From IMG/VR virus record IMGVR_UViG_3300020727_000860, positions 1 to 58,074 of that record: a stretch of DNA of 58,074 nt; one strand, written 5' to 3'. Below the pieces are notes generated by a model. It was given only the letters and a program-made list of their open reading frames with translations, was not told the origin of the DNA and ran no database searches. Numbering within the stretch: the first letter of the stretch is position 1; each line of letters starts with the position of its first letter. Source of the DNA: a virus (lineage: Duplodnaviria > Caudoviricetes). Of the stretch, positions 29,065 to 54,010 are shown in pieces. Position numbers and translations under genes: made by a program.

Positions 29065-30255
29065 TTACGAATTCTTCTTTTTAACTCTTCTCTTTTTGCC
29101 AGTGGTAAACACTACTTTATCTTCATCATTATCATAATCCATAATTAATTTACTGCCTTTTTCTGGATTCAATTTGATAATTTCTTCGGTTAAAGTATCT
29201 TCAATATATCTCTGAATAGCTCTTTTCAAAGGTCGAGCTCCATACTGAGGATCAAATCCCTTTTCAACTATATAATTTCTTAAATCATCAGTTAATTCAA
29301 TTTCATATTCTAATTTTTTAACTCTTTCAATCAATCCTTCTAATTCAATATTGATAATCTTATTGATATTCTCTTTAGTTAAAGAATTAAATGTAACAAT
29401 ATCATCAATACGATTTAAAAATTCAGGAGCGAAAGTCTTTTTCAATTGCTTTTCAATAACTGACTTAGATTCTTCCTCTGTATTTTCTTCTCTGGATTTA
29501 GTCATAAAACCTACTCCAGTTCCGAAGTCTTGGAGTTGTCTCGATCCTGTATTAGATGTCATAATGACAACAGTATTCTTAAAACTTACTTTACGACCCA
29601 ATGAATCAGTTAGTTGGCCATCATCCAGTACTTGCAATAAGATGTTAAATACATCAGGATGAGCTTTTTCAATTTCATCTAACAAGATTACTGAGTATGG
29701 TTTTCTTCTAACTTTTTCGGTCAACTGACCACCTTCGTCATGACCTACATATCCTGGAGGGGCACCTACTAATCTTGATACACTAAATTTTTCCATGTAT
29801 TCACTCATATCAATTCTAATTAAAGAATCTTCTGAATCAAACATATATTTAGCCAAAATTTTTGCTAATTGTGTATTATGTGACAATATACCATTTGTGT
29901 AATATCTTTTATTACTAACTTCAGATAACTGAAAGTCATACATTCTCTCTTTGTATCCAAGATTTTCAATAGATATTACAATATCTTCAACATTATCTGT
30001 GATTATTCTATCTCCTATTTCTATATTTTTCACAAAAATTTCAGACATATCAGATAAAAAAACAATATGATTATCAGCACATTTTAGAGACATACCTGAT
30101 GCGGTTTTTAGTTCATAAACATCATATTCTATTGTCTCATGTAGATATTCTATATCTACAAATCCCGTATCTGTCAATATCTCATAGTCTTCTATTTTCC
30201 ATGATTGTGTAAACTTCTTACTATAGTCTTTTGATTTTGATAAATTTTCTATCAT
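29065..30255 (-). CDS. clpC: Split intein C-part (127 aa) fused to C-terminal part of ClpC ATPase
   Basis: LKCADNH (block B), MYDFQL...YYTNGILSHN|TQLAK; RIDMSEYMEKFSVSRLVGAPPGYVG, LLDEIEKAHPDVFN, GARPLKRAI. Confidence 0.92.
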   Translation of the reverse strand: MIENLSKSKDYSKKFTQSWKIEDYEILTDTGFVDIEYLHETIEYDVYELKTASGMSLKCADNHIVFLSDMSEIFVKNIEIGDRIITDNVEDIVISIENLGYKERMYDFQLSEVSNKRYYTNGILSHNTQLAKILAKYMFDSEDSLIRIDMSEYMEKFSVSRLVGAPPGYVGHDEGGQLTEKVRRKPYSVILLDEIEKAHPDVFNILLQVLDDGQLTDSLGRKVSFKNTVVIMTSNTGSRQLQDFGTGVGFMTKSREENTEEESKSVIEKQLKKTFAPEFLNRIDDIVTFNSLTKENINKIINIELEGLIERVKKLEYEIELTDDLRNYIVEKGFDPQYGARPLKRAIQRYIEDTLTEEIIKLNPEKGSKLIMDYDNDEDKVVFTTGKKRRVKKKNS

Positions 30256-30264
30256 ATTATAATT

Positions 30265-31395
30265 TTATTTGTTTAAAAATTCTATACATTTTTGTATTGT
30301 TTCTTCGCGATTTTTTTTGAATTCTGAATCCCAAATCGAAAGAACCTGGAACCCGTTTTCATTTGCTAATTTTATCTTCTCTTCATCATGTTTCCATATA
30401 TCACAAGCCTTATATCCTTTATACTTTCTATAGGGGTGTGGATATGATCCTGATTCATAAATTTTTGGATTAGCATGATATTGATCTCCGTTATACTCTA
30501 TGATTTTACCTTTATCAATTTCAGTAAAATCATAATAATAATTTTTATTATTTTTCGTCAAACAAAGTTCCGAGTTATGAGTAGCGTATTTACAATTCAT
30601 CGAAAATTTCGAAATTATATCAAATAATTCTTGACTAACTTTGGAATATCCTCCTTTTATATTACCATTTTTATATAAACTATTCTGCCATTTATTCTGC
30701 CTTTCTTTCCAAATTCTAACCCCATATTCTTCACCATATTTCTCTATGCATTTTTCTTTAGAAAAGGTTCTCTGTGATTCAGACACCTTTAATTTAGATT
30801 CCTCTTTGTTAAATCCCCTTTCTATCCAATATTCTAAATTGGATGGTAATAATCTATTTTCAAAGTCTACATTTTTAGCAGCATTAGATTGCGACTCACG
30901 TAGCTTACATTTTGCTTCTTCTTCTGATAAACCCTTATTTATCCAAAATGATAACATAGATGGTGTTTGACAAATATTTTTTATTTCTTGTTCTGAAAAT
31001 CCGATATTTTTTAAATTTTCTTTTGATACAACAAATCTATTTTTAACCTTTTTGGAACTATCTGATTGCATTTCGGATATTTTTTTAATGGAGTCAATTT
31101 CAGTATATCCTCTATTAATCCAAAATTCTTTTCTTAATCTATTATTTGATATCATTATATCATACATTTTTTTCGAAATTTTATTATACTCATCGATTGG
31201 TAGAAAGGCTTTCCAAACTTCTTTTCTTTTTAATTTTAGTTTGTTTGATAAGCAATCAATATTAGAACACACATTTATATTTTTATACAATTCAGATTTA
31301 ATTTTAATGATATTAAAAACTAAATTTGATTCACAAATATTGCAAATGGGATCTTTATCCGCCTCAAAAATTGTATTTTTTAATTTATATTTCAT
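30265..31395 (-). CDS. Free-standing putative homing endonuclease (W..RG repeats plus Vsr/DUF559-like nuclease)
   Basis: Repeated (F/Y)WI.RG....A/S; YDF...IIEYNGDQYH...D..K...A...GFQVLSIWDSE; sits between the clpC halves. Confidence 0.75.
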   Translation of the reverse strand: MKYKLKNTIFEADKDPICNICESNLVFNIIKIKSELYKNINVCSNIDCLSNKLKLKRKEVWKAFLPIDEYNKISKKMYDIMISNNRLRKEFWINRGYTEIDSIKKISEMQSDSSKKVKNRFVVSKENLKNIGFSEQEIKNICQTPSMLSFWINKGLSEEEAKCKLRESQSNAAKNVDFENRLLPSNLEYWIERGFNKEESKLKVSESQRTFSKEKCIEKYGEEYGVRIWKERQNKWQNSLYKNGNIKGGYSKVSQELFDIISKFSMNCKYATHNSELCLTKNNKNYYYDFTEIDKGKIIEYNGDQYHANPKIYESGSYPHPYRKYKGYKACDIWKHDEEKIKLANENGFQVLSIWDSEFKKNREETIQKCIEFLNK

Positions 31396-31407
31396 TTTTA
31401 TAATTTC

Positions 31408-32829
31408 TTAGTCCAATTGGGATTGGTTAAGTTTATATATTAAACTCTTAATATCAACTTTTTCTATTTTTCCTGTTTTTTTATTTCTTATCGAAATTTT
31501 TACAGAGGATACAAAACATTTACCGACACCAGTAGGTCCTAAGAAAAGGAATGATCCAATTGGTTTAGTAGGATCTTTCAAACCGATTCGACTTCTTTGA
31601 ATAGCTTTAACAACTTTAGAAACCGCATCATCTTGTCCTATGACCTTACCCATCAAGGTCTCACTCATTTTAGCTAATTTATCATTTTCTTTTTGATTGA
31701 CTTTTTGTAAAGGTATTCCAGTCATCATAGATACAACTTCAGCTACATTATCCTCGGTTACTTTTTGTCTATGATTTTTTTGATCATCTTCCCATTTACT
31801 TCTAGCTTCATCTAAATTAGATTGTAGTTGTTTTTCAACATCTCTAAGTTTAGCAGCTTCTTCATATTTTTGATTTCTGACTACTTCATTTTTCTTTTCT
31901 TTAATTTCAGTAATCTTGTTTTCAATATCTACAATCTCTTTCGGAACCACAATATTAGAAATATGTATTCTAGAACCAGCTTCATCTAAAGCATCAATAG
32001 CCTTATCTGGTAAAAATCTATCCGACATATATCTTGAAGTTAAGCTTACACAAGCTAAAACAGCCTCATCTGTATAAAAAACATTATGATGAGATTCATA
32101 TTTATCTTTAATGTTATTGATAATTTGAATTGTTTCTTCTTCTGTTGCAGGTTCAACCACTACCTTTTGGAATCTTCTTTCCAAAGCACCATCTTTTTCG
32201 ATGTGTTTTCTGTATTCATCCAAAGTAGTAGCACCAATGATTTGTATCTCTCCTCTAGCCAATGCAGGTTTAAACATGTTAGAAGCATCTAAAGATCCAC
32301 TCGCGCCACCAGCCCCAATAATAGTGTGAATTTCATCTATAAATAAAATCACATCTAGATTCTTTTCCAATTCAGCCATCAAAGCTTTAATTCTTTCTTC
32401 AAACTGACCACGGTACTTAGTACCTGCGACCATAGAAGCCAAGTCTAACATAACAATACGTTTGTTATATAGTACTCTTGAAACTTTCTTTTGACCGATT
32501 CTCAAGGCAAGTCCTTCGGCTATAGCTGATTTACCAACACCAGGCTCACCTAATAAAATAGGATTATTCTTTTTTCTACGTGATAAAATTTGTGATACTC
32601 TTTCAATTTCCTTCTCTCTACCAACAATAGGATCAATTTTTCCATCCTTTGCTTGTCGAGTTAAGTCTCTACTGAAAGTATCCAAAATTGGAGTTTTGGA
32701 TTTAGGGTCAACAATTTTTTTGTTCCCTTTGAATTTAGAATCATCAGTATCATCATCTTCTTCTTCAATTGCCATTCTGACATCTAATTTTTTCAAATCT
32801 TCGGTTTCATCTCCAATGTATTTATTCAT
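31408..32829 (-). CDS. clpC: ClpC ATPase N-terminal part fused to short split intein N-part (36 aa)
   Basis: GEPGVGKS, FIDEIH, UVR-like YEEAAKLRD, second Walker A GPTGVGK|CFVSS... Confidence 0.92.
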   Translation of the reverse strand: MNKYIGDETEDLKKLDVRMAIEEEDDDTDDSKFKGNKKIVDPKSKTPILDTFSRDLTRQAKDGKIDPIVGREKEIERVSQILSRRKKNNPILLGEPGVGKSAIAEGLALRIGQKKVSRVLYNKRIVMLDLASMVAGTKYRGQFEERIKALMAELEKNLDVILFIDEIHTIIGAGGASGSLDASNMFKPALARGEIQIIGATTLDEYRKHIEKDGALERRFQKVVVEPATEEETIQIINNIKDKYESHHNVFYTDEAVLACVSLTSRYMSDRFLPDKAIDALDEAGSRIHISNIVVPKEIVDIENKITEIKEKKNEVVRNQKYEEAAKLRDVEKQLQSNLDEARSKWEDDQKNHRQKVTEDNVAEVVSMMTGIPLQKVNQKENDKLAKMSETLMGKVIGQDDAVSKVVKAIQRSRIGLKDPTKPIGSFLFLGPTGVGKCFVSSVKISIRNKKTGKIEKVDIKSLIYKLNQSQLD

Positions 32830-43214: not shown

Positions 43215-44017
43215 CTATTATTATATCTTTTATATAACCACCCTATAAAAGGAATTATTATAACAGATATAATCCATTGCCAATATAATTTTAAAAAATC
43301 GGTAATTGTATATACTATATTAGACTTAACATAGACTACATCTGTATAAACAACATCTTTTCTATCACCATCCTCAATAATTGCTACTGATATATAGAGT
43401 TTTAAGTTACCACTTTTTATAGGAGTTACATCATATATCCACTCTGTATGTGAGTCACCTATTAATTGAATTGAATCTGTGCCTCTAACTATTGAGAATG
43501 ACCTACCATTCGTTGATGGATCTACTAATAAAACCATCATTTTACGAGTTGTCTTAATAACTGTATCTATTTTTCCATTTGGCATACCAACATGTATCTT
43601 CTTATCTGTAGTATCTCTAGATATTCTAATTTTAATAGTATATGTCTTTTTAAGATTCATTGTATCGGGTATTTTATACAATAATCTACCTGGTCTTATT
43701 TCACTATTATTAGAACTTTTTACTTTTTTTGGTACATCTGTAATCCTTTTAGATTTAGTCTTATTTGGAACAACATTTTTTTCCATCCTTTTTTTTTCAT
43801 AATTAGGAAAAGCACTTCCCTCACCCGAATCCATGGCTACCATTGATTGTACTTTAGTTGGTTCAGGTGGTTGCTCAGGATATAAAGAACTGTCATTTTG
43901 CTCATATATAGAACCAACCTTACTTGCAACTTTAGTTGGTTTAATATCAGGTGTTTTACTAGGCATCTTAACACATGACATCATAAATAAAACAAAAAAT
44001 AATAATATATATCTCAT
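43211..44017 (-). CDS. putative lipoprotein with C-terminal transmembrane helix
   Basis: Signal peptide ending MMSC; WQWIISVIIIPFIGWLYKR at the C-terminus. Confidence 0.6.
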   Translation of the reverse strand: MRYILLFFVLFMMSCVKMPSKTPDIKPTKVASKVGSIYEQNDSSLYPEQPPEPTKVQSMVAMDSGEGSAFPNYEKKRMEKNVVPNKTKSKRITDVPKKVKSSNNSEIRPGRLLYKIPDTMNLKKTYTIKIRISRDTTDKKIHVGMPNGKIDTVIKTTRKMMVLLVDPSTNGRSFSIVRGTDSIQLIGDSHTEWIYDVTPIKSGNLKLYISVAIIEDGDRKDVVYTDVVYVKSNIVYTITDFLKLYWQWIISVIIIPFIGWLYKRYNNR

Positions 44018-44030
44018 AACGCTTTATTTT

Positions 44031-45452
44031 TTAAGCAATTACACACCATCTAACGACTGAACCATCATATATATTCAACGCTCCCTCATCACCTAATGAT
44101 TTTATTATAAAAGAAGTATTATTTACTATATCATTATTAGCAGCTGATAAATTACCCAAAACACCACGCCCTGTTTCATATGTTAATATAATTGAAATAC
44201 AATTTGTTGTTACTATAGATGATGATACCACAACCTGACCAGATATTAATGTTGCTAAACCACTATCCAGCATTATAGACTGTCCTTGTGGACCCTGAAA
44301 TCCTTGAACACCATCATTGCCCTGTGTACCATCATTACCCTGAGAGCCCTGGACACCATCTGATCCAATTCCATCATTTCCCTGAAACCCTTGAACACCA
44401 TCACTTCCTTGAAATCCTTGATTACCATCATTTCCTTGGGGTCCTTGAACACCATCACTTCCTTGAAATCCTTGAGCACCATCATTTCCTTGAAATCCTT
44501 GAGCACCATCATTTCCTTGAGGTCCTCCAGGTTGTCCATCATTTCCTTGAAATCCTTGACTACCATCTATACCTTGAAATCCTTGATTACCATCATTTCC
44601 CTGAGGTCCTTGAGCACCATCATTTCCTTGAAATCCTTGAACACCATCATTTCCCTGAGGTCCTTGAGCACCATCATTTCCTTGAAATCCTTGAACACCA
44701 TCATTTCCCTGAGGTCCTTGAACACCATCATTTCCTTGAGGTCCTTGAGCACCATCATTTCCTTGAGGTCCTCCAGGTTGTCCATCATTTCCTTGAAATC
44801 CTTGAGCACCATCATTTCCTTGAAACCCTTGATCACCATCTATACCTTGAAACCCTTGATCACCATCATTTCCTTGAAATCCTTGAACACCATCTATACC
44901 TTGAAATCCTTGAACACCATCTATACCTTGAAATCCTTGAGCACCATCATTTCCTTGAAATCCTTGAACACCATTCATTCCATTATTTCCTTGAAATCCT
45001 TGACTACCATCTATACCTTGAAATCCTTGAACACCATCCATTCCATCATTACCTTGTAGACCCTGCAGTCCGTATCCTTGAAATCCTTGCATTCCACTAC
45101 CACCACTACCTGGGCCTTGAAATCCTTGAGCACCATACCCAGTTATACCTACAACACTATTTACATAGTTTTCTATTTGTTTATCAATTATCACAGGATT
45201 TTTTGATCTTAATACAGATAGATGTTCTTCGAATATTGTTAAAGCCATCTGTGCATCAGTTGGGCTTGGAAAATCTAGTTGTATATCACTAAAAACCTTA
45301 GTGGAAATTCTCATTAAATTATTATAAGCCTGTGTATTTATGATTGAAAAAGAATTGATAGTATATTGAATAACACCATTTGTGTCTAATATTTGTATAT
45401 TGACATCTGTTGATGATACTGGTCTTAAAAAGGTTTTGTAACTATATGACAT
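44031..45452 (-). CDS. collagen-like (Gly-X-Y) virion fibre protein
   Basis: Long G-x-Q/G-N-D triplet tract between globular domains. Confidence 0.8.
   Translation of the reverse strand: MSYSYKTFLRPVSSTDVNIQILDTNGVIQYTINSFSIINTQAYNNLMRISTKVFSDIQLDFPSPTDAQMALTIFEEHLSVLRSKNPVIIDKQIENYVNSVVGITGYGAQGFQGPGSGGSGMQGFQGYGLQGLQGNDGMDGVQGFQGIDGSQGFQGNNGMNGVQGFQGNDGAQGFQGIDGVQGFQGIDGVQGFQGNDGDQGFQGIDGDQGFQGNDGAQGFQGNDGQPGGPQGNDGAQGPQGNDGVQGPQGNDGVQGFQGNDGAQGPQGNDGVQGFQGNDGAQGPQGNDGNQGFQGIDGSQGFQGNDGQPGGPQGNDGAQGFQGNDGAQGFQGSDGVQGPQGNDGNQGFQGSDGVQGFQGNDGIGSDGVQGSQGNDGTQGNDGVQGFQGPQGQSIMLDSGLATLISGQVVVSSSIVTTNCISIILTYETGRGVLGNLSAANNDIVNNTSFIIKSLGDEGALNIYDGSVVRWCVIA
44287..45130. repeat. 27-bp-period tandem repeats encoding GAQGFQGND-type units
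   Basis: Degenerate CCTTGAAATCCTTGAGCACCATCATTT units on the plus strand. Confidence 0.85.
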
Positions 45453-45470
45453 TTATCATTTTATTATTTT

Positions 45471-46655
45471 TTAGCTTGTTATATTAAGATCGACCATTGC
45501 ATATACGCAATTTTGCGCAATATCTTTTAAATTAAATGACATTACATATGATCCAGTAGCTGTTATCATTCCTATATCTGTTACTGATGACATTGTACAT
45601 GACATAGTTCCAGATGCAGTTGCACTACTGATAAGTAAATTGACATCAGGAATTATATTGATAACACCATCTCTGTTATCAACAACATTATTAATTAATA
45701 ATGAACTTAATGTCGGTTTATCTATAACACTACCAGATAAACCAAATTGTGACAATGATATTGAAGTTGAGAATGTTACACCATAACTAGTATCGTATGG
45801 AACACCTGATGTGGCTCCATTAAATGATATATAATTACCAGAAAAAGTATTACCAACATTACTCCAGAAATAAACCACCGGTGAAACCGAGTCAGCAACT
45901 GGGTTTAACGTATTTATATTGACATTAGGATTATTAATTACATAATTTAATAGAGATTGAGCTTGATAAGCATCATATTCTGTTACAAATTGTAGGAAAA
46001 TAGTACCAATACTAACATCATTTATTATTAAAATGTTTCCTGTTTTTTGTATAGAATTTATACTACTTAATTGTATATAAATTAAAGGTAAAGGAGTTAG
46101 ACGTTTGTCATATATAACGATAGATTCACCGACAACATATGTTTTAATATCAGTGTAATTTAAGTTAACAAATGTAGTACCTGTTTGATTTAAAGTATCT
46201 GTAAATGGTGCATATGTTTCATCAATAGAAGCCATCATAACATCCAATGTTACATTATATTTAGAATTTGGATTAGTCATGTAAATTTGTTTAATTCTAT
46301 GTGTAGAATTACCAGTTAACAACATTAGATTATCCATATAGTTCACTGTTGTTAAACTATCATAAAAAGACCATTGAACATAATTATCCTCTTCTATTGT
46401 AGAATTTGGATCATAGGTCGCTCTAATTAGAACAAATGTCGCACTATCACCAACACCTGATAGATTAAGTAAGTAGTTTACTTGGCCTGCCTTAAGCACG
46501 ACCCTACTTTTAACTATTTGATCATAAGGAATTTTAAGATCATTTGTAATTAATTTTTCTACAGTGTTAGCTCCCTCAATAGCCACGAAATCACCACCTA
46601 ATATTCTAATATATTGACTACTAGCACCAAATATTGTTGTACCGCATGCTGCCAT
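45471..46655 (-). CDS. probable virion structural protein
   Basis: 394 aa T/S/N/V-rich ORF upstream of the collagen-like gene. Confidence 0.5.
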   Translation of the reverse strand: MAACGTTIFGASSQYIRILGGDFVAIEGANTVEKLITNDLKIPYDQIVKSRVVLKAGQVNYLLNLSGVGDSATFVLIRATYDPNSTIEEDNYVQWSFYDSLTTVNYMDNLMLLTGNSTHRIKQIYMTNPNSKYNVTLDVMMASIDETYAPFTDTLNQTGTTFVNLNYTDIKTYVVGESIVIYDKRLTPLPLIYIQLSSINSIQKTGNILIINDVSIGTIFLQFVTEYDAYQAQSLLNYVINNPNVNINTLNPVADSVSPVVYFWSNVGNTFSGNYISFNGATSGVPYDTSYGVTFSTSISLSQFGLSGSVIDKPTLSSLLINNVVDNRDGVINIIPDVNLLISSATASGTMSCTMSSVTDIGMITATGSYVMSFNLKDIAQNCVYAMVDLNITS

Positions 46656-46716
46656 AATTATCTTTAATTTTAATGTATATATTAAAATTCAAAGATTAAA
46701 TTATATTAAACAAAAT

Positions 46717-46860
46717 TTACCAATTCATTCTTCCATCCCACCAACTAACAAATTCATCAAATGTAAAATCATAACTCTCATAGTTGGTATAACCCCAACC
46801 AATATCATTATAGCATAAGTTTACCCTATCACCATCTATGTATAAAGTATCATAAGTGAA
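46717..46860 (-). pseudogene. 3' remnant of a gene truncated at the mini-element left end
   Basis: Open frame FTYDTLYIDGDRVNLCY...WWDGRMNW* running into the element with no start codon in this segment. Confidence 0.4.
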
Positions 46861-47141
46861 AACCAAAGAAAACACAGAAGTCTTTAGCTTCTGTGATTTT
46901 GGTAATTATTCACTAAATTCAATTAAAGGAAAGAGTCTATATTAAATATATAATATGTTAGGAAATTAAAAAATTCTAGCATCGGCAGGGACTGTCGATT
47001 ACAGGTATGGAGCAAAAATAAGACCTGATTAGCTAACTAATTAAAATTGGCACACTAACTGAAGGCAAAAGCAATGAATCATCTAAAAAGAAGGAGCTTG
47101 TCTCCCGAAACTTATCGGTCTTTAGTCGATAAGTAGTTCAT
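46857..47141 (+). mobile_element. Non-autonomous IS200/IS605 mini-element (type A)
   Basis: Near-identical to 4724-5012 with a few substitutions. Confidence 0.85.
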
Positions 47142-47147
47142 TTTTAG

Positions 47148-47218
47148 TTCTCTTATCTCGGATCGAACGAGAATCAATAGGGCCAGAACCTATCGTGTTA
47201 CCATTACACCATAAGAGA
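47148..47218 (-). tRNA. tRNA-Gln(CTG)
   Basis: Acceptor TCTCTTA/TAAGAGA; anticodon arm ATAGG-TTCTGGC-CCTAT; GTTCGAT T-loop. Confidence 0.9.
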
Positions 47219-47839
47219 TTATTTCTTTATACTATTTCTACCAGCAAATGTAATTAACCCAGCATTACAATTAGGACAAATAATTCTTAAATTTTCTAAT
47301 CTGTTATCATTGTTTACTCCGTTGATATGATCCAAAATCAGTGATATCTTCATCCCATTCCAATTATCATTTTGCCCACATAAGCAACATATATTTCTAA
47401 TCAATCCATTTTTAATAATCCTTTTCTTCAAATTGGTCCTACTAGTTGTTGAGTTTTCAACTAATAGCGAATCTATTGGTTGTCTTACAAAATTTTTCAC
47501 CATATTTTCAAATCTTTCAGATTGAGATTCAAAATGATCTATATTTATATTATACATCTTAATATATTTCCATATTACCTTGTAATTACCACCAGCTTTT
47601 CTCAATATCATAAAATCAAGCACATCTGATATACTTTTTGAATTTTCTACAATTGGCCTTATGTTTTCTTCTAGATATTGATTTTTTATTTTAGTGTATT
47701 TTAATTTTAATAATCTAGCCTTTTTTATTATAGCATTTCTATTTCTACTAATGAACTTTGAGCAATATTCTGGTCCATATTTAGCATAATTTTTTAATAA
47801 AAAATCTTTTTCTTCTGATGTCCATTCTATTGTCTTCAT
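47219..47839 (-). CDS. HNH homing endonuclease
   Basis: C..C...LDHINGVNNDNRLENLRIICPNCN; likely start ATG 47839. Confidence 0.85.
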   Translation of the reverse strand: MKTIEWTSEEKDFLLKNYAKYGPEYCSKFISRNRNAIIKKARLLKLKYTKIKNQYLEENIRPIVENSKSISDVLDFMILRKAGGNYKVIWKYIKMYNINIDHFESQSERFENMVKNFVRQPIDSLLVENSTTSRTNLKKRIIKNGLIRNICCLCGQNDNWNGMKISLILDHINGVNNDNRLENLRIICPNCNAGLITFAGRNSIKK

Positions 47840-47894
47840 GTTACTTTTTATTTTTATATATAAAAATAACGGCAACCCCCTAAACCGGCAATTG

Positions 47895-47966
47895 TTGTCA
47901 CACTAGGACTCGAACCTAGAACTAATGGCTCAAAACCATTCGTAGTTACCATTACACCATGTGACA
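47895..47966 (-). tRNA. tRNA-Gln(TTG)
   Basis: Acceptor TGTCACA/TGTGACA; AATGG-TTTTGAG-CCATT; GTTCGAG. Confidence 0.9.
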
Positions 47967-48395
47967 ATCTAAGTAATGTTCAATTGTTATTCCATCTATT
48001 CTTTCGAAAAAATGAAACTCTCTATGGCAATTAGAACATAGTATTATACATTTATCTATCTCACTTAATATTATATCAAAGCTCTTTCCTCGAAATATTG
48101 AAGATCCTATATTAAAATCCTTTTTATTCCCCTTTAAGTGATGAAAATCTAATAAATATTGCCTCCTTTCTCCACATTTTTTACATCCTTCTATTTTAAT
48201 TTTACTCAATTCATATAGAAGTGATGATTTTTTATCCTTTTTTTGTTTTAGTATACTATCTCTTCTCTTTCTATAAGAGATATTATCTAATATTTTTTTA
48301 CACTCTTTACAAAGTGTAATTTTTCCACTTTTTTTACTCTTACAATTGACAAACTCATTAGAATCCTTTGTCAATTTACATTTTCTACATATCAT
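47952..48395 (-). CDS. HNH endonuclease
   Basis: CRKC..CKEC; CKKCG...LDFHH...KC.ILCSNCHREFH. Confidence 0.85.
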   Translation of the reverse strand: MICRKCKLTKDSNEFVNCKSKKSGKITLCKECKKILDNISYRKRRDSILKQKKDKKSSLLYELSKIKIEGCKKCGERRQYLLDFHHLKGNKKDFNIGSSIFRGKSFDIILSEIDKCIILCSNCHREFHFFERIDGITIEHYLDCHMV

Positions 48396-48420
48396 ATACC
48401 TTATATATTTTTGGTATATA

Positions 48421-48452
48421 TTAAAACGAGAAATTAAAGATTCTCGTTTTAA
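48421..48452. repeat. 12-bp inverted repeat upstream of the HNH gene
   Basis: TTAAAACGAGAA-N8-TTCTCGTTTTAA. Confidence 0.6.
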
Positions 48453-48461
48453 CTCTATAAT

Positions 48462-48495
48462 AAAAAACCCTATTCAAAACAAATTGAATAGGGTT
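48462..48495 (-). terminator. Attenuator terminator after the poly-Gln leader
   Basis: AACCCTATTCAA-TTTGTT-TTGAATAGGGTT followed by T-run on the minus strand. Confidence 0.8.
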
Positions 48496-48520
48496 AAAGT
48501 TTTAGCAATGCAACTCCTCA

Positions 48521-48574
48521 TCAATCTGTCTGATTAATTTGTTGCTGTTGCTGATATACATTATTTCTATTCAT
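48521..48574 (-). promoter_or_regulatory. Putative Gln-sensing leader peptide MNRNNVYQQQQQINQTD
   Basis: CAG CAA CAG CAA CAA run; stop 25 nt before the terminator; in frame with the upstream endonuclease ORF. Confidence 0.7.
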
Positions 48575-49231
48575 TGTTATTATATTTTTAATTATGTCTA
48601 AATACTTTTTATCTCTTTCTGGTTTAAAATGTTTGGAACTTGACACATCAATGGTACAAAATTCTATTTTACTTTCTAAACAAGCTTGAAATTTTCTATC
48701 ATCATTGTTTTTAACACTTTCTAACTTTTTATCTCCATATATAGGTTCATAGTGAAATATTCCATTTAGTTCAAATGCTAAATTTAAACTTGGTATATAA
48801 ATATCCAGTTCACTATTTATGGCTTCCTTTCCGTTGAAAATAATTTCAAAAGAAAATTCCTTTTTTAATTCATCCTCTATCCAAGCTTCTAACTTACTTC
48901 TTCTTGTTCCTGTTGATTTATGTGTATTGTTATATTTAGCAGCACATGAACTCGAACAAAAAATATTGGTGGTTTTATTCTTCCTCAATTCATAAGGCTT
49001 TTTTAATACCTTACTATCACAATAAACACACGAAAGTTCTATAATCGTGTTTCTATTTTCATAGTGACATTTTTGACTACAGAATTTTATTTCACCCTTG
49101 TTCGATTTTATTTCATGTTTTATATGCTTTTTTTCTTTTAAAAAATTTTCACCACATTCACAACACTCAACTTTTAACTTATCATTTGATTTCGCCTTAT
49201 CGAATTCCTCCTTGGTATATTTTATTTTCAT
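48521..49231 (-). CDS. Zn-finger plus Vsr/DUF559-like putative homing endonuclease
   Basis: FCSQKC and FCSSSC; ELDIYIPSLNLAFELNGIFHY...D..K...C. Confidence 0.75.
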   Translation of the reverse strand: MKIKYTKEEFDKAKSNDKLKVECCECGENFLKEKKHIKHEIKSNKGEIKFCSQKCHYENRNTIIELSCVYCDSKVLKKPYELRKNKTTNIFCSSSCAAKYNNTHKSTGTRRSKLEAWIEDELKKEFSFEIIFNGKEAINSELDIYIPSLNLAFELNGIFHYEPIYGDKKLESVKNNDDRKFQACLESKIEFCTIDVSSSKHFKPERDKKYLDIIKNIITMNRNNVYQQQQQINQTD

Positions 49232-49292
49232 ATTATATATATTAAATAATCAATATCTGTTTTCTCTACTTATACGAATGGTAATAAATTTG

Positions 49293-49365
49293 TCGAGAAT
49301 GTGCGATTCGAACGCCTCTCCAGAGCCCCAAACTCCATGTGCAACCGGGTTACACCTCATTCTCG
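49293..49365 (-). tRNA. tRNA-Pro(TGG)
   Basis: C1-G72 acceptor CGAGAAT/ATTCTCG, A73; loop TTTGGGG; GTTCGAAT. Confidence 0.8.
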
Positions 49366-49370
49366 TTTTG

Positions 49371-49442
49371 CGGACGTAGATGGGACTTGAACCCATATCG
49401 ACCCTCAAATAGGGCCATTCTTGCCAATTGAACTACACATCC
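49371..49442 (-). tRNA. Atypical tRNA or tRNA-like RNA (possible TTT anticodon, undetermined)
   Basis: Good acceptor, D and T arms; anticodon arm GCCCT-ATTTG-AGGGT is short; extra base before the acceptor 3' strand. Confidence 0.5.
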
Positions 49443-49447
49443 ATTTG

Positions 49448-49518
49448 TTGTCCCTCAGGGATTCGAACCCCAGCTAGATGGACCAAAACCACCTGTACTA
49501 CCGCTATACTAAAGGACA
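49448..49518 (-). tRNA. tRNA-Gln(TTG)
   Basis: TGTCCTT/AGGGACA; GGTGG-TTTTGGT-CCATC; GTTCGAAT. Confidence 0.9.
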
Positions 49519-49574
49519 ATGTGACTTTTTGATAAGCATAGAAGTCTAACTAGTTCCTGTCTTAGAGGAAGTCG

Positions 49575-49657
49575 CGGTCCCGACGGGAATTGAACCCGCT
49601 ACAGTCATAAAACCACGGAGTGACAATCCGCTGCACCAACCATTATGCGCCAAGACC
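49575..49657 (-). tRNA. tRNA-Asp(GTC) with long variable arm
   Basis: GCGGA-TTGTCAC-TCCGT; G73; 15-nt variable region. Confidence 0.8.
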
Positions 49658-49663
49658 AAATTG

Positions 49664-49737
49664 CGGAATGTACGGGATTCGAACCCGTGACCTTCTCCGT
49701 GACAGGGAGACATTGTTACCAACTCTACTAACACTCC
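49664..49737 (-). tRNA. tRNA-Asp(GTC)
   Basis: TCTCC-CTGTCAC-GGAGA; G73; canonical T arm. Confidence 0.92.
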
Positions 49738-49798
49738 GTATTTCTAATTCTAAGCAACCGGTTTCAGGTTCTATGAATTAGTAACAGTCCATTACTTG

Positions 49799-49871
49799 TC
49801 GAAAATGTTGGATTCGAACCACTCCTCTTCCTTCCAGGGGAAGTATGCAACCGGTTTACAACACATTCTCG
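49799..49871 (-). tRNA. tRNA-Pro(TGG), atypical loop
   Basis: C1-G72, A73; CTTCC-CCTGGAA-GGAAG gives C33 and A37. Confidence 0.75.
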
Positions 49872-49880
49872 TTATGACAT

Positions 49881-49914
49881 AAAAAAACCCATTTAGTTTG
49901 TGACTAAATGGGTT
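49881..49914 (-). terminator. Attenuator terminator between leader and first tRNA
   Basis: AACCCATTTAGT-CACAA-ACTAAATGGGTT followed by T-run on the minus strand. Confidence 0.85.
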
Positions 49915-49934
49915 ATAAAAAGTTTTTACAGTTT

Positions 49935-50024
49935 TTACAACATGCAATTAGCCACTCCAGTATCAGTATCCTGATCGGGTTGTTGTGGTTGAACTTGTGG
50001 TTGTATGTTTAAAACTGTTTTCAT
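49935..50024 (-). CDS. Putative attenuator leader peptide MKTVLNIQPQVQPQQPDQDTDTGVANCML
   Basis: 29-codon ORF with 6 Gln, 3 Pro and 3 Asp within codons 8-21; preceded by promoter motifs and followed by a terminator. Confidence 0.75.
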   Translation of the reverse strand: MKTVLNIQPQVQPQQPDQDTDTGVANCML

Positions 50025-50076
50025 AATAGTATATATTATATTTTTATTTTCCCTTTTGTTTTATTTTTTATGAATA

Positions 50077-50107
50077 CAAAGATACGAAGTTTTTTCTTAC
50101 CACCAAA
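50077..50107 (-). promoter_or_regulatory. Bacteroidota sigma70-type promoter for the leader/tRNA operon
   Basis: TTTG-N19-TAtcTTTG; a TAATATATA motif also lies at 50030-50038. Confidence 0.7.
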
Positions 50108-50108
50108 A

Positions 50109-51149
50109 TTATTTTACAAGACTAACAAATTCTTCAAATTTATAATCTGTGAATTCATTTACATAAGTAATTGTTACATTAACTGGTGAATCTATACTCT
50201 GTTTAACTACTGATATTAAATCTTTTTCTTTTTCACCAAGTGGATCGGCTATTATTTGTAGTTCTAAGTCATTTATAGTTTTTTGAATAACTTTAAATCT
50301 TTTTATACCAAATTTATCATATTGTGGTGATCCAAATAATGGCCATTTTTTATCACCATTTGGCATAACAAACATGTTTCTCACTCTACCCTTTATTTCT
50401 TTGATAGTCTGTAAACTTCTTCCACAATTACACTCTCCCATAATAATATGGTCGCCGTGTTTATATCTTTTTATATAAGGATTTGTCAAACAAGTAACTA
50501 TAATTCCACCATCTTCATCAGTTTCCACTATTATATTTTCCATAACATGCATCACAGATGGATTATCCGGACATTGTATTGCTATTGTTCCACACTCTTC
50601 ACTTGAATACATAGTTCCTCCTAATTCTCCTGTTCCTTTCCAGTCAATAAAATTACTTAATTTAGATGTATCTAATTGTTTAAATACTGATGGATAACAT
50701 TGTATGTATTGTGGATTAATATTATCCAACCATTTTTGTAATTCTAATGTTGGTTTAATTCCACTCACAAATGCTTTTCCTTGTATTGGGTAAATATTTT
50801 TTGGAAAGCCCCAATTATCCATCGTGATGGATGGAGCACCTGGTTTTATAATAGCTATATTCTTTGTAACATCCCATTTTCTCCATATCATTTCTCTGAT
50901 ATTTGTTGCAGCATGCCATATAATATCATGATATGTTTTTTCAACTTTTACTGGTTCGCCAGTTGAACCAGATGTATTTGAGGAGTGAACTCCTCTTCTC
51001 ATTTCAATTTTTCTTAAATCTTCCTTAGTAATGATTTTATATTTGTTCAATATACCTCTATCATATTTGTGCATCCATTGAGTCACCTCAAGATTTATTA
51101 ATAATGTCTGTATATCTTTTTCTACTTTATCTTGTGTTAAAATTTCCAT
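50109..51149 (-). CDS. phenylacetate-CoA ligase/CapK-like adenylate-forming enzyme
   Basis: TSGSTGEP, YSSEECG.IA.QC, RYKHGD, C.CGR, I.GR. Confidence 0.8.
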   Translation of the reverse strand: MEILTQDKVEKDIQTLLINLEVTQWMHKYDRGILNKYKIITKEDLRKIEMRRGVHSSNTSGSTGEPVKVEKTYHDIIWHAATNIREMIWRKWDVTKNIAIIKPGAPSITMDNWGFPKNIYPIQGKAFVSGIKPTLELQKWLDNINPQYIQCYPSVFKQLDTSKLSNFIDWKGTGELGGTMYSSEECGTIAIQCPDNPSVMHVMENIIVETDEDGGIIVTCLTNPYIKRYKHGDHIIMGECNCGRSLQTIKEIKGRVRNMFVMPNGDKKWPLFGSPQYDKFGIKRFKVIQKTINDLELQIIADPLGEKEKDLISVVKQSIDSPVNVTITYVNEFTDYKFEEFVSLVK

Positions 51150-51583
51150 ACAAAAAATGAATAATCATTAAATATTTTAGAGTCTGTTGGATTTATTTGA
51201 AAATCTTCCGACTTTGGAAAATATTCAGCTATTCGCATGGTGGGTAACTTGTAGTTAAAGCTTCTGGTAATAAATACATTACAATGATTACTAGCCATAT
51301 CTAAAATCCCATCACATAATTTTTTATTGAAGCAAAGGCCACCATCTAATATTATATTAGAATAGTAATTTTTGTTTGTTAACCAATCTTGTACAATCAT
51401 ACTTGGTCCTTTATACCATGGATCTATATCCATTTGATAGTCACTTATTGGAATTAAATTTTTAGTACATCCTAAAAGAAGGGTTGTACCTTTTGAAAGA
51501 TATGATTTGTATATTTCAACATCATCATTTGATGGTGATAATGGATGTGGAAAGTCCTTTGACCAATAAGTATTATCTAACAT
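51137..51583 (-). CDS. hypothetical protein, possibly a degenerate methyltransferase fold
   Basis: TLLLGCT, IILDGGL. Confidence 0.55.
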   Translation of the reverse strand: MLDNTYWSKDFPHPLSPSNDDVEIYKSYLSKGTTLLLGCTKNLIPISDYQMDIDPWYKGPSMIVQDWLTNKNYYSNIILDGGLCFNKKLCDGILDMASNHCNVFITRSFNYKLPTMRIAEYFPKSEDFQINPTDSKIFNDYSFFVWKF

Positions 51584-51601
51584 AATTTTTTATTCTTTTA
51601 G

Positions 51602-52069
51602 TTATATTAAATACTCCTTTGCACTTCCAGGTTTAAAAATCTCTAATTGCCTGATTGAGGTAGATGATATATGTTCAAATTTTTTATCACACATTATAAA
51701 TACCGATTTAACCTCTGGTTTGAAATCGTGAATAAAAGATAACTGATTATTTTCATATGACAAATCATCACCATTTCTTAACCCACGAACTAGTATAGCA
51801 TTGTAACCTTCTAACTCTTTTTGATCAATAAATTCATGAAGAAAAGTATAATACATTTCTACTTTTCTACCTATTTTCTGTGATAATTCCTGATCCCTGG
51901 GAACCCCGGAGTTATTTACCACATCATGTATTGAAACTTTAGCTGGATTAACACCTATCGCGACTAGAACATTTTCTTTTCCAAAGATTTTTTCAGCTTT
52001 TTCCACAATATTTAAATGTCCTACATGAAAAGGATTAAAACTGCCAGCATAAATAGCTAATGTTTTCAT
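51602..52069 (-). CDS. coaD: phosphopantetheine adenylyltransferase
   Basis: AIYAGSFNPFHVGH, LVRGLRN..D..YE, ISSTSIRQL. Confidence 0.85.
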   Translation of the reverse strand: MKTLAIYAGSFNPFHVGHLNIVEKAEKIFGKENVLVAIGVNPAKVSIHDVVNNSGVPRDQELSQKIGRKVEMYYTFLHEFIDQKELEGYNAILVRGLRNGDDLSYENNQLSFIHDFKPEVKSVFIMCDKKFEHISSTSIRQLEIFKPGSAKEYLI

Positions 52070-52071
52070 AA

Positions 52072-52797
52072 TTAATAATTTATTTTAACACCAAATGTCA
52101 AACTTGATACCAAATGATTTCCATATACTATGAATGTCTCATAAGTATCAACATAATTTACAGTTACGGATAATCTTTTTGTAATGAAACAATCTAAATT
52201 GACTTTAGCTCTGTGGTTATAAGAAGACCAATCATCCATTCTGGGTTGAAAATAAAATTCAACATAGTATCCAATTCTTTCAAAATTACCAAAAAACTTA
52301 GTTTTAAAACTATGTCTTAGATATTTTGTAGTAACACTATCATTGTTATAAACAGAATAATCATACAGAACAGCATACGAGGCTGATATATTAAGTGGTT
52401 TACTTTTATATAAAGACCTACCACCACCTATTGCTGCCTCGTATCTAATATCTAATTTTCTTGCGTAAGATTTAATAAATTGAAGAAATGTAAAAGAATT
52501 CCAGTCTTCATAAAAAAGTCTAGGTTGTAAAAGAAGAGAACCATCCTCCTGTATCTTTTTGTTATTTGAGTAGGAAAGTAAATAGTTACCTTCAATAGTA
52601 TAATCAGTTCTTTTATATTTCAAATAATTCAATAAATCACCCTTCAAGATGGTTTGTTTATTACCAACATTTGGGTTATTGACTATACCTGCTAAGATGA
52701 TAACTCCACGTCTTTCAATTGAGTCTCTTTTAACCTTTAAAGTATCTTGACCAAAAGAAAGAAATGGAATTATCAACAGTATAATTAAAAATCTCAT
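52072..52797 (-). CDS. DUF481-like outer-membrane beta-barrel protein
   Basis: Signal peptide MRFLIILL..SFGQ, amphipathic strands, terminal LTFGVKINY; start at ATG 52797. Confidence 0.6.
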   Translation of the reverse strand: MRFLIILLIIPFLSFGQDTLKVKRDSIERRGVIILAGIVNNPNVGNKQTILKGDLLNYLKYKRTDYTIEGNYLLSYSNNKKIQEDGSLLLQPRLFYEDWNSFTFLQFIKSYARKLDIRYEAAIGGGRSLYKSKPLNISASYAVLYDYSVYNNDSVTTKYLRHSFKTKFFGNFERIGYYVEFYFQPRMDDWSSYNHRAKVNLDCFITKRLSVTVNYVDTYETFIVYGNHLVSSLTFGVKINY

Positions 52798-52798
52798 A

Positions 52799-54010
52799 TT
52801 AATAGAAGTTATCGTATTCATGAAAGTTTTTTGTTTCTTTTGAATAAGTTTCAATTTCCTTTTTCCAAAAATCTAAATCTGGTATGAATTCAGCGAGCTC
52901 AGACCTAAAACATTCAGTGGTGTGACCGCCTTCAGATTGTGTATGTTTCACAACCAATTTAAACCCATCCCAATCTATAGATTTATGATCTACTTCTAAT
53001 GAATCTAAGAAGTCTGTTATCGAGTTTTTTTCAGACTCAATTCTGTCTTTACAAAAATCAACAGTAATCAATTCCTTGTTAAGTTTTTTTATCTTAACAC
53101 CTGAAACATAATTATATTCATCATCCATGAAGAAAATAGATTCATCTGTCTCTGCTGGTGTTACAGTAGTAACAGCTCTATTTATCGTACCACTCCTATT
53201 ACCATATCCGTAATCATCCCAATCATCACTATCACCCCACCCATAACCACGATAGTAGGAATAGTTAGAATATTCATATTTACTTGGATCACGACTAACA
53301 GGAAGTGATTCCCAATTTATTTGATTACAAGCTTTTGCCAATAACTCTAAGTGAGCAATATCTTGTTGCTCAGAAAAAGTATGTTCAGACTTATAACCTA
53401 CTGAAATGTTAGTACACTCAGGGTAAATTCGTATGAATTGTGCTGAGTCTGTATAAACACCAGTTGGGTCTGTTTTATAACTAAAAGCAGGTTCAACTCG
53501 ATTTAATTCATCAGATAAGGCTTTACCAAATTCATCTGAACAACATCTACCACTAGATTGAAATGTAATTACAGAATCATATCCACGTCTATCAAAAGAA
53601 ATTACTTTATTGATATGCTCAATTTTAGAATCTTTTAATTTACCAGCTAAACTCTTTGATCCGACACAACCAACTTCTTCACCTAAAAAGAAATAGTATA
53701 AACCAGGAACTTTCTGCTCTATCATATAAAGCATAATAGTCACACCTGCTTTATCATCCGCTCCTAATATTGAAGTACCATCTGTTTTGATGATGTTGCC
53801 ATCGAAAATATGATTAACTTCTGTATTAGCGGAAGTAGCAGTATCCAAGTGAGATGTGAACATACAACTTGGATTCTCACCTATTTGAATAAACCTGTTT
53901 CCAAATTCATCAGTATCAAATTCTTGAGGTAAAAATTCCATTACCTCAGATTCAGTACCGTGTGGGTAGGTTTTACTGGTTAGCTTTAAAAAAGTTTCTT
54001 TTATGTCCAT
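52799..54010 (-). CDS. M28/M20-family zinc peptidase-like protein
   Basis: SHLDT, LGADDKAG, GEEVGCVGS, SFDRRG, N.SVGY..EH. Confidence 0.8.
   Translation of the reverse strand: MDIKETFLKLTSKTYPHGTESEVMEFLPQEFDTDEFGNRFIQIGENPSCMFTSHLDTATSANTEVNHIFDGNIIKTDGTSILGADDKAGVTIMLYMIEQKVPGLYYFFLGEEVGCVGSKSLAGKLKDSKIEHINKVISFDRRGYDSVITFQSSGRCCSDEFGKALSDELNRVEPAFSYKTDPTGVYTDSAQFIRIYPECTNISVGYKSEHTFSEQQDIAHLELLAKACNQINWESLPVSRDPSKYEYSNYSYYRGYGWGDSDDWDDYGYGNRSGTINRAVTTVTPAETDESIFFMDDEYNYVSGVKIKKLNKELITVDFCKDRIESEKNSITDFLDSLEVDHKSIDWDGFKLVVKHTQSEGGHTTECFRSELAEFIPDLDFWKKEIETYSKETKNFHEYDNFY

Follow-up and report, generated by a model that had tools for sequence, protein, structure and literature searches.

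Ribosome-mediated transcription attenuators of amino-acid operons, such as trp, his, leu, thr, ilv and pheA, contain a short leader frame with a run of regulatory codons, followed by an intrinsic terminator and a competing antiterminator whose formation depends on where the ribosome sits (PMC1183508). The pheST operon, with its pheM leader, appears to be a case in which an attenuator of this kind senses the cognate charged tRNA and controls a bacterial aminoacyl-tRNA synthetase, as a single unit. T-box riboswitches also couple codon-specific sensing of tRNA status to a terminator/antiterminator choice, but they bind uncharged tRNA directly, without translation, through a specifier loop and a conserved T-box sequence, and they regulate synthetase, transport and biosynthesis genes.

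The locus analysed here, on the minus strand of a 58,074-nt phage sequence (the window; IMG/VR record IMGVR_UViG_3300020727_000860), resembles the leader-peptide attenuators in its short frame with a codon run, its terminator and its predicted antiterminator. One related family of leaders (Asn/Leu/Met/Thr/Val) mixes several codon types, as the ilv and thr leaders do. In contrast to the amino-acid operons, the genes behind the terminator are tRNA genes cognate to the regulatory codons. Moreover, the leaders lie inside a tRNA array, seven differently tuned copies occur in one phage genome, no Shine-Dalgarno motif is present and an anti-antiterminator is only weakly supported. No description of such an arrangement was found in the literature searched.

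Anatomy of the tRNA-Gln locus

A sequence-only reading had proposed a Gln-codon sensor plus terminator gating two tRNA-Gln genes, as one unit of a modular design. All the elements it described were confirmed in the sequence. The features of the region are as follows.

48521-48574, minus strand: 17-codon leader frame with its own ATG (48574-48572), a run of five Gln codons mixing CAG and CAA (48553-48539), a sixth Gln codon three codons before the stop (48532-48530) and a TGA stop (48523-48521)
48521-49231, minus strand: 236-aa homing-endonuclease-like ORF whose frame runs without a stop into the leader frame
48521-48537, minus strand: small hairpin H1, in which the codons just after the Gln run (48537-48532) pair with the last sense codon plus the stop (48526-48521)
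48512-48526, minus strand: candidate antiterminator strand, spanning the last sense codon, the stop and about 9 nt after it
48460-48495, minus strand: intrinsic-terminator hairpin, with 5' arm 48495-48484, loop 48483-48478, 3' arm 48477-48466 and then a T run
48423-48450, minus strand: second hairpin, a perfect 10-nt inverted repeat with an 8-nt loop, at the start of the inserted segment
47952-48395, minus strand: 147-aa HNH endonuclease ORF, overlapping the following tRNA by 15 nt at its 3' end
47894-47966, minus strand: tRNA-Gln, anticodon UUG (Rfam tRNA, 56.2 bits)
47219-47875, minus strand: 218-aa HNH endonuclease ORF, for which an internal ATG at 47839 is the likelier start
47147-47218, minus strand: tRNA-Gln, anticodon CUG (Rfam tRNA, 59.2 bits)
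49886-50024, minus strand: upstream sibling module of the Pro/Asp leader family, with a 29-codon frame rich in Pro, Asp and Gln codons (50024-49935) and a 12-pair terminator hairpin (49914-49886)
49291-49870, minus strand: tRNA cluster behind the sibling module, Pro(UGG), Asp, Asp, Gln(UUG), Lys, Pro(UGG); the two tRNA-Pro genes were called only at a relaxed ARAGORN threshold

The Gln run is the only run of four or more Gln codons in all six frames of the window. A consensus scan found the terminator at 48495-48466 as a 12-pair stem with 4 G-C pairs, a 6-nt loop and a T run, and the hairpin energy was -15.8 kcal/mol. In total, 8 terminator-like sites were found in 46500-50500, against 1.3 +/- 1.2 in shuffled sequences. 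ARAGORN and Rfam placed only the two tRNA-Gln genes downstream. The Rfam scan of 44000-53000 at E <= 1 returned 7 matches, all tRNA. Thus, no T-box was found, nor was any tRNA fragment called in the leader or any hammerhead-like core near the stop. A blastn search against named phages gave only tRNA-sized matches and weak matches to uncultured huge phages. Although the completeness estimate was 4%, a giant virus of eukaryotes is unlikely, given the PHROG phage matches, the tightly packed overlapping ORFs and the relatives, which are 385-476 kb phage-like records.

The sequence-only reading had missed the in-frame fusion of the leader to the 236-aa ORF and the two HNH ORFs that lie between the terminator and the tRNAs, one before the first tRNA-Gln and one between the two. 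The three endonuclease ORFs matched phrog_559 (E 8.4e-13; 236 aa), phrog_2255 (E 2.3e-27; 147 aa) and phrog_10822 (E 2.5e-36; 218 aa), while Pfam gave only sub-threshold hits. For the first ORF, 5052 homologues were found at E <= 0.001 among 6085 candidates, and 17 of 19 loci with relatives of this ORF hold tRNA genes. The third ORF is absent from a 99.8%-identical contig (L061), which has 98 nt in place of window positions 47220-47891. About 490 nt, including an HNH gene, now separate the terminator from the first tRNA-Gln, and that gene may bring its own promoter. As the cassette is interrupted by three homing-endonuclease genes, its present-day function is less certain than that of the intact relatives.

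Related loci and the seven leader modules

In order to find related leaders, a degenerate pattern for the last nine codons was used, which retrieved 6 viral loci and 45 metagenome loci. An ATG-started small frame was present in 47 of the 51, and the other 4 were chance hits with no ATG and no tRNA. The 28 distinct leader ORFs are 13-17 codons long, 27 of them 15-17. Some loci are the same contig in two collections, and there are 40 distinct leader DNAs. A downstream tRNA call was obtained for 35 of the 40, although the pattern did not demand it. Of 94 calls, 75 are Gln(UUG), 18 are Gln(CUG) and 1 is unclassified, behind leaders with five to seven Gln codons. The first tRNA starts 61-72 nt after the stop in 31 of 35, at 121 nt in 1, at 555 nt in 2 (the window and L061) and at 2439 nt in 1. 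The same pattern hit 6 places in 596 Gb of prokaryote genomes, none of which has the small frame or a tRNA. The loci are homologous, so the many copies are not independent events.

A coding signature was also observed. At the first codon position not forced by the pattern (-9), 26 of 28 distinct leaders have a Gln codon, split 17 to 9 between the two synonyms, and at -10, 19 of 28 do. Frame lengths differ by whole codons. The leader has an A-rich start context without a Shine-Dalgarno motif, which is the norm here, as only 1 of 52 window ORFs has such a motif, against an 8% background. There is no room for a separate promoter: the leader ATG lies 18-39 nt after the previous tRNA in 17 of 34 loci that hold one, and in the intact relatives the tRNA-Gln starts 9-10 nt after the hairpin.

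Two near-complete megaphage records, G001 (385 kb) and G002 (476 kb), each hold seven leader-plus-hairpin modules in front of tRNA clusters. The codon-by-anticodon match was highest for the observed pairing of leaders and clusters, and only 1 of 5040 permutations reached it in each genome. The seven module families are the independent units in this comparison, and the two genomes are related to each other. In the three families seen in the fetched loci, the leader frame matches far better than the other two frames (Gln 0.38 against 0.12 and 0.01; Asn/Leu 0.61 against 0.34 and 0.23). In the Pro/Asp family, however, only 15% of codons are read by the following cluster under strict wobble rules, and Val and Ile codons are present with no matching tRNA behind it.

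Predicted alternative folds and a proposed attenuation mechanism

RNAalifold on 35 sequences kept all six pairs of H1 in 35 of 35, except one pair in 34 of 35; H1 also appeared in the single-sequence folds. One locus cut by the contig end was left out of the alignment. Three terminator stem pairs change on both sides in 20, 11 and 20 of 35 relatives, and hairpin energies ranged from -13 to -19 kcal/mol in 33 relatives. As the MAFFT alignment puts some hairpins one column out of register, the antiterminator was evaluated by per-sequence folds. When nascent RNA was folded up to the terminator loop with a ribosome footprint on the Gln run, the 5' arm paired with the stop region in 33 of 33 sequences. 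Two sequences lacking a perfect stem were excluded from this set. With one stem mismatch allowed, pairing was found in 35 of 35, at a mean of -15.2 kcal/mol, whereas after shuffling that region the figures were 33% and -6.4 kcal/mol. The window's own copy behaved the same way (12 nt paired, -15.4 kcal/mol). With the ribosome at the stop, pairing was found in 0 of 33, but this follows largely from how the mask was defined. The upper antiterminator helix hardly varies and was partly forced by the search pattern, so covariation there is thin. Across the seven modules, the 3' part of each leader pairs better with its own 5' arm than with the others' (-9.9 against -6.7 kcal/mol in G001 and -12.3 against -7.5 in G002), and only 2 of 5040 permutations are as low in each.

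Based on these observations, the leader frame, the stretch across its stop and the hairpin at 48495-48466 are probably this phage's copy of a conserved ribosome-mediated attenuator that gates tRNA-Gln genes, into which three homing-endonuclease genes have been inserted. The mechanism is inferred from anatomy and folding, including translation of the frame, its coupling to transcription, termination at the hairpin and the direction of the response. No sequencing run on record as RNA contains the stretch. The tRNA array would be transcribed as one long precursor, with ribosomes translating the short frame embedded in it. When charged tRNA-Gln is plentiful, the ribosome would run to the stop codon and cover the stretch that could pair with the terminator 5' arm, so that the terminator folds and transcription stops before the tRNA-Gln genes. 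When charged tRNA-Gln is scarce, the ribosome would stall on the Gln run and hold the 5' strand of H1, which would otherwise sequester the stop region. The freed stop region would then pair with the 5' arm as an antiterminator, and RNA polymerase would read on into the tRNA-Gln genes, resulting in negative feedback of tRNA-Gln on its own synthesis. Without any ribosome mask, however, the antiterminator is already the minimum-energy fold of the nascent RNA in 21 of 33 sequences. The default state may therefore be read-through, and the role of H1 as an anti-antiterminator is not secure.

Alternative readings and implications for phage tRNA supply

It could be argued that the Gln run is only the incidental C-terminal tail of the 236-aa endonuclease, with the hairpin as that gene's ordinary terminator and the tRNA-Gln genes nearby by chance. 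Indeed, the 17 codons share the frame and stop of this ORF, the phrog_559 match runs to residue 230, and this endonuclease family often ends inside whatever flanks it, including tRNA genes. Nevertheless, this is very unlikely. Homology among the endonucleases ends near residue 218, and most relatives lack the tail (24 of 29 aligned and 19 of 19 viral loci). The tail also exists as a free-standing ATG-started frame, without the endonuclease, in most of the 47 loci, with the same hairpin and tRNA-Gln genes, and a second, unrelated HNH family is fused to the same start codon. An untranslated structured RNA or DNA signal, such as a processing site or a protein-binding repeat, with the open frame as a by-product of an A+C-rich repeat, also seems improbable. 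A run of one trinucleotide changes length in whole codons by slippage, so frame conservation in the run itself is weak evidence, and the leader lacks a Shine-Dalgarno motif. However, synonymous changes dominate in the run, indels outside it are also whole codons, and the match to downstream anticodons holds only in the ATG frame and across seven families of quite different composition. The lack of Shine-Dalgarno motifs is, moreover, a feature of the whole phage.

Alternatively, the codon content may matter while the output is not transcription attenuation. A stalled or passing ribosome might change processing or stability of the tRNA precursor, or Rho-type termination, with the hairpin as a constitutive partial terminator or a processing signal. 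The codon-to-anticodon match points to coupling to translation without indicating which step is controlled, and the folds without a ribosome do not demonstrate a simple on/off switch. This possibility is considered unlikely, although less so than the others, as it does not require the specific complementarity between each leader and its own terminator arm in seven families and in 35 of 35 Gln leaders. In addition, the hairpins have the G+C-rich stem and T run of intrinsic terminators and also close ordinary genes in these genomes. A sensor of opposite sign, in which stalling favours termination and the tRNA-Gln genes are transcribed only when translation is fluent, seems improbable as well. 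The folding energies of the competing structures are close in some sequences, but the 5' arm was captured by the stop region in 33 of 33 folds with the footprint on the Gln run. Furthermore, the stop lies 28-38 nt before the hairpin, so that a terminating ribosome cannot melt the terminator but does cover the antiterminator strand.

In a broader reading, regarded as somewhat more likely than not, freshwater megaphages of this clade run a genome-wide set of at least seven codon-specific leader-peptide attenuators, one in front of each of the seven main tRNA clusters (Phe/His/Trp/Lys, Ser/Arg, Tyr/Glu, Ile/Gly/Ala, Asn/Leu/Met/Thr/Val/Ile, Pro/Asp and Gln). Each group of phage tRNAs would then be transcribed only when the ribosome reports a shortage of exactly those charged tRNAs. 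This would let the phage sense and repair depletion of particular host tRNAs during infection, for example, and speculatively, after host shut-off or attack by tRNA-cleaving defences. Homing endonucleases would have learned to ride on these conserved leaders. Two unrelated endonuclease families are fused in frame to the start codon of the leader frame, which would be a case of homing endonucleases targeting and fusing to a regulatory leader.

The modules would provide a sequence signature for finding co-regulated tRNA groups in metagenomic phages, and a natural set of seven orthogonal codon-specific sensors that could be used as parts. Why large phages carry many tRNA genes, and how these are expressed, is an open question. 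If the modules work as their anatomy suggests, phage tRNA supply is not constitutive but would be demand-driven, cluster by cluster, through a mechanism so far known for amino-acid and synthetase operons.

The small Gln frame and its surroundings

The sequence-only reading had described a small Gln-rich frame with a terminator, followed by tRNA-Gln genes only. The following features were located in this region of the window:

48574-48521, minus strand: 17-codon frame with its own ATG, five consecutive Gln codons that mix CAG and CAA (48553-48539), a sixth Gln codon three codons before the stop, and a TGA stop
48495-48466: hairpin following the frame, with 12 pairs, 4 G-C pairs, a 6-nt loop and a T run
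47894-47966: tRNA-Gln(UUG)
47147-47218: tRNA-Gln(CUG)
48521-49231: 236-aa ORF of which the 17 codons are also the last 17 residues
47952-48395: 147-aa HNH ORF between the terminator and the first tRNA-Gln
47219-47875: 218-aa HNH ORF between the two tRNA-Gln genes

The scan for terminator-like sites revealed 8 of them in 46500-50500, against 1.3 +/- 1.2 in shuffles. The two tRNA-Gln genes were the only tRNAs placed downstream by ARAGORN and Rfam. In all six frames of the window, this is the only run of four or more Gln codons. The observation is thus real, and the position of the frame next to tRNA-Gln genes is not what chance would give.

The three larger ORFs could not be seen in the sequence-only reading. 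The 236-aa ORF matched homing-endonuclease families (phrog_559, E 8.4e-13) and has 5052 homologues at E <= 0.001 among 6085 candidates. The 147-aa and 218-aa HNH ORFs matched phrog_2255 (E 2.3e-27) and phrog_10822 (E 2.5e-36), respectively, while Pfam gave only sub-threshold hits for the three ORFs. The window is a 58-kb viral contig with 28% G+C and it carries phage-type genes. A ClpB-like ATPase appears as two ORFs with a 376-aa ORF between them and weak intein-domain hits, and a UDP-glucose dehydrogenase-like ORF ends in an intein-splicing-domain match (29065-32829 and 13957-15093, minus strand).

In order to evaluate whether the Gln frame is just the tail of the endonuclease, 30 homologues were aligned. 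Conservation stops near residue 218. A similar Gln-rich tail was found in five of 29 relatives, while the rest, at the same overall identity, lack it. A 95%-identical fragment also has the tail, with three amino-acid changes. In contrast, none of 19 viral loci with relatives of the endonuclease has it. Seventeen of those 19 hold tRNA genes, and several tails run into flanking tRNA genes. The endonuclease therefore inserts in tRNA arrays, and its end is encoded by whatever flanks it.

Occurrence of the frame in related loci

A degenerate DNA pattern for the last nine codons of the frame was searched, and 6 viral loci and 45 metagenome loci were found. In 47 of the 51 the motif is the end of an ATG-started frame, and in most loci this frame stands alone, without an endonuclease. 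The other 4 (loci L031, L055, L056 and L059) have no ATG, no hairpin and no tRNA, and are chance hits. Some loci are one contig present in two collections, and the set comprises 40 distinct leader DNAs. A tRNA call was obtained behind 35 of them, and the five without a call are mostly cut by the contig end. Of 94 calls, 75 are Gln(UUG), 18 are Gln(CUG) and one is unclassified. The pattern did not ask for a tRNA, so this association is a finding. The same pattern hit 6 places in the prokaryote genome collection, none of which has the frame, the hairpin or a tRNA.

The first tRNA begins 61-72 nt after the stop in 31 of 35. It begins at 121 nt in one, at 555 nt in two (this window and its close relative, locus L061) and at 2439 nt in one. 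The hairpin ends 9-10 nt before the tRNA, and the ATG lies 18-39 nt after the preceding tRNA-Pro or tRNA-Asp in 17 of 34 loci that hold one. The module therefore sits inside a tRNA array, with no room for a separate promoter on either side.

Several signs that the frame is read as codons were observed. At the first position that was not forced by the pattern (-9), 26 of 28 distinct leader ORFs have a Gln codon, split 17 to 9 between the two synonyms, and at -10 19 of 28 do. The 28 leaders are 13-17 codons long, with 17 codons in 18 leaders, 16 in 8, 15 in 1 and 13 in 1. Length changes in a trinucleotide run can come from slippage, so this point is weak on its own, although indels outside the run are also whole codons. 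The leaders have no Shine-Dalgarno motif, but neither does the phage: only 1 of 52 ATG-started ORFs of 120 aa or more in the window has one, against an 8% background, and starts are preceded by A-rich sequence. This suggests a host that does not use such motifs.

The leader of this window has the same length as the commonest form, 17 codons, and aligns with it from the ATG to the stop. The first endonuclease ORF joins the leader exactly at its ATG, and the same junction occurs in diverged relatives. An unrelated HNH family is fused in the same way in loci L058, L063 and L071. In these loci and in the proteins P0004, P0005, P0011 and P0054, two unrelated endonuclease families end by reading in frame through the Gln leader and using its stop codon. 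Most join it at or just before its ATG, while in P0004 an extra stretch lies between. The conserved leader seems to be a homing target, and the fusion may keep it translated. The second endonuclease gene sits exactly between the T run and the tRNA. A perfect 10-nt inverted repeat (48423-48450, minus strand) lies directly after the terminator, at the edge of this inserted HNH segment, and the first ten bases of its 5' arm recur just upstream of both tRNA-Pro genes of the window. The third endonuclease gene is missing from L061, which is 99.8% identical on both sides and has 98 nt in place of 47220-47891, showing a recent gain or loss of a homing endonuclease. A second difference lies at 46861-47137. 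The cassette here is therefore ancestral but invaded, and whether it still regulates is open, because the inserted gene may carry its own promoter.

Leader families and the match between codons and anticodons

In order to assess how general the arrangement is, a scan was made for a hairpin plus T run just upstream of a same-strand tRNA, with a small frame ending just before it. In the related loci three leader families were found, namely the Gln family, a Pro/Asp (plus Gln) family in front of tRNA-Asp and tRNA-Pro, and an Asn/Leu/Met/Thr/Val family in front of clusters of exactly those tRNAs. The upstream module of the window at 50024-49886 belongs to the Pro/Asp family. Two tRNA-Pro(UGG) genes of the window (49800-49870 and 49291-49365, minus strand), which fit the Pro codons of this leader, were missed by ARAGORN at default settings but called at a relaxed threshold; one reaches 32.7 bits in Rfam. 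In one member of the third family, 18 of the 19 codons after the ATG are read by tRNAs of the following cluster. The match holds in the ATG frame and much less in the other two frames: Gln 0.38 against 0.12 and 0.01, Pro/Asp 0.15 against 0.01 and 0.04, and Asn/Leu 0.61 against 0.34 and 0.23.

The tRNA regions of two near-complete records, G001 (385 kb, 41 tRNA matches) and G002 (476 kb, 59 matches), were then examined, and each has seven modules. The four further leaders are rich in His, Lys, Phe and Trp codons, before Phe, His, Trp and Lys tRNAs; in Ser and Arg codons, before Arg and Ser tRNAs; in Tyr and Glu codons, before Glu and Tyr tRNAs; and in Ile, Ala and Gly codons, before Ile, Gly and Ala tRNAs. 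For the test, leaders were picked automatically, blind to the tRNAs. The number of leader codons read by the following cluster was highest for the observed pairing, 59 in G001 and 60 in G002, and only 1 of 5040 permutations reaches that total in each genome. As the two genomes are related, this amounts to about one independent test of seven families. All seven leader families (loci L078, L079, L082 and L083, from G001 and G002) begin with Met followed by Lys, Thr, Arg or Asn and then Thr or Asn, and six of the seven hairpins start with three C and end with three G. The modules look like paralogues that diverged in their sensor codons. A tRNA with anticodon CUA, which would read the amber stop codon, was also noticed in G001 (370132-370203, locus L080), a relative of this phage, and hints at stop-codon suppression or recoding in this clade.

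Predicted structures and proposed mechanism

RNAalifold was applied to 35 Gln leaders. A small hairpin (H1) pairs the codons just after the Gln run with the last sense codon and the stop; five of its pairs are kept in 35 of 35 sequences and the sixth in 34 of 35. The terminator stem has both-side changes in 20, 11 and 20 sequences at three pairs. The nascent RNA was then folded from the ATG to the terminator loop. With a ribosome footprint on the Gln run, 6 nt or more of the terminator 5' arm pairs with the stop region in 33 of 33 sequences, loci L042 and L050 being left out since they had no perfect stem. With one mismatch allowed, all 35 do so, at a mean of -15.2 kcal/mol, while after shuffling that region the figures are 33% and -6.4 kcal/mol. 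The copy of the window pairs 12 nt, at -15.4 kcal/mol. With the footprint on the stop codon none pairs, although this follows mostly from the mask. Without a ribosome, 21 of 33 already prefer the antiterminator, and termination in the absence of translation is therefore not assured.

Across the seven modules of G001 and G002, the 3' part of each leader pairs better with its own 5' arm than with those of the others. The means are -9.9 against -6.7 kcal/mol and -12.3 against -7.5 kcal/mol, respectively, and only 2 of 5040 permutations are as low in each genome. In the Asn/Leu family, the leader holds a copy of the 3' arm of its terminator that changes together with the terminator.

The proposed mode of action is like that of the leader-peptide attenuators of amino-acid operons (PMC1183508). 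It differs in what is regulated: tRNA genes cognate to the regulatory codons, inside phage tRNA arrays, in seven differently tuned copies. No paper describing a leader-peptide attenuator in front of tRNA genes was found in full-text searches, which did not cover subscription-only papers. The element is not a T-box, since only tRNA matches were found with Rfam in 44000-53000 at E <= 1.

Taken together, these data fit the classical logic of attenuation, and we consider this reading probable, although it rests on computed anatomy and pairings without RNA data, and translation, coupling, termination and the sign of the response are inferred. According to this logic, a ribosome that reaches the stop hides the antiterminator and transcription ends. 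In contrast, a ribosome stalled on the regulatory codons frees it, and transcription would continue into the cognate tRNA genes.
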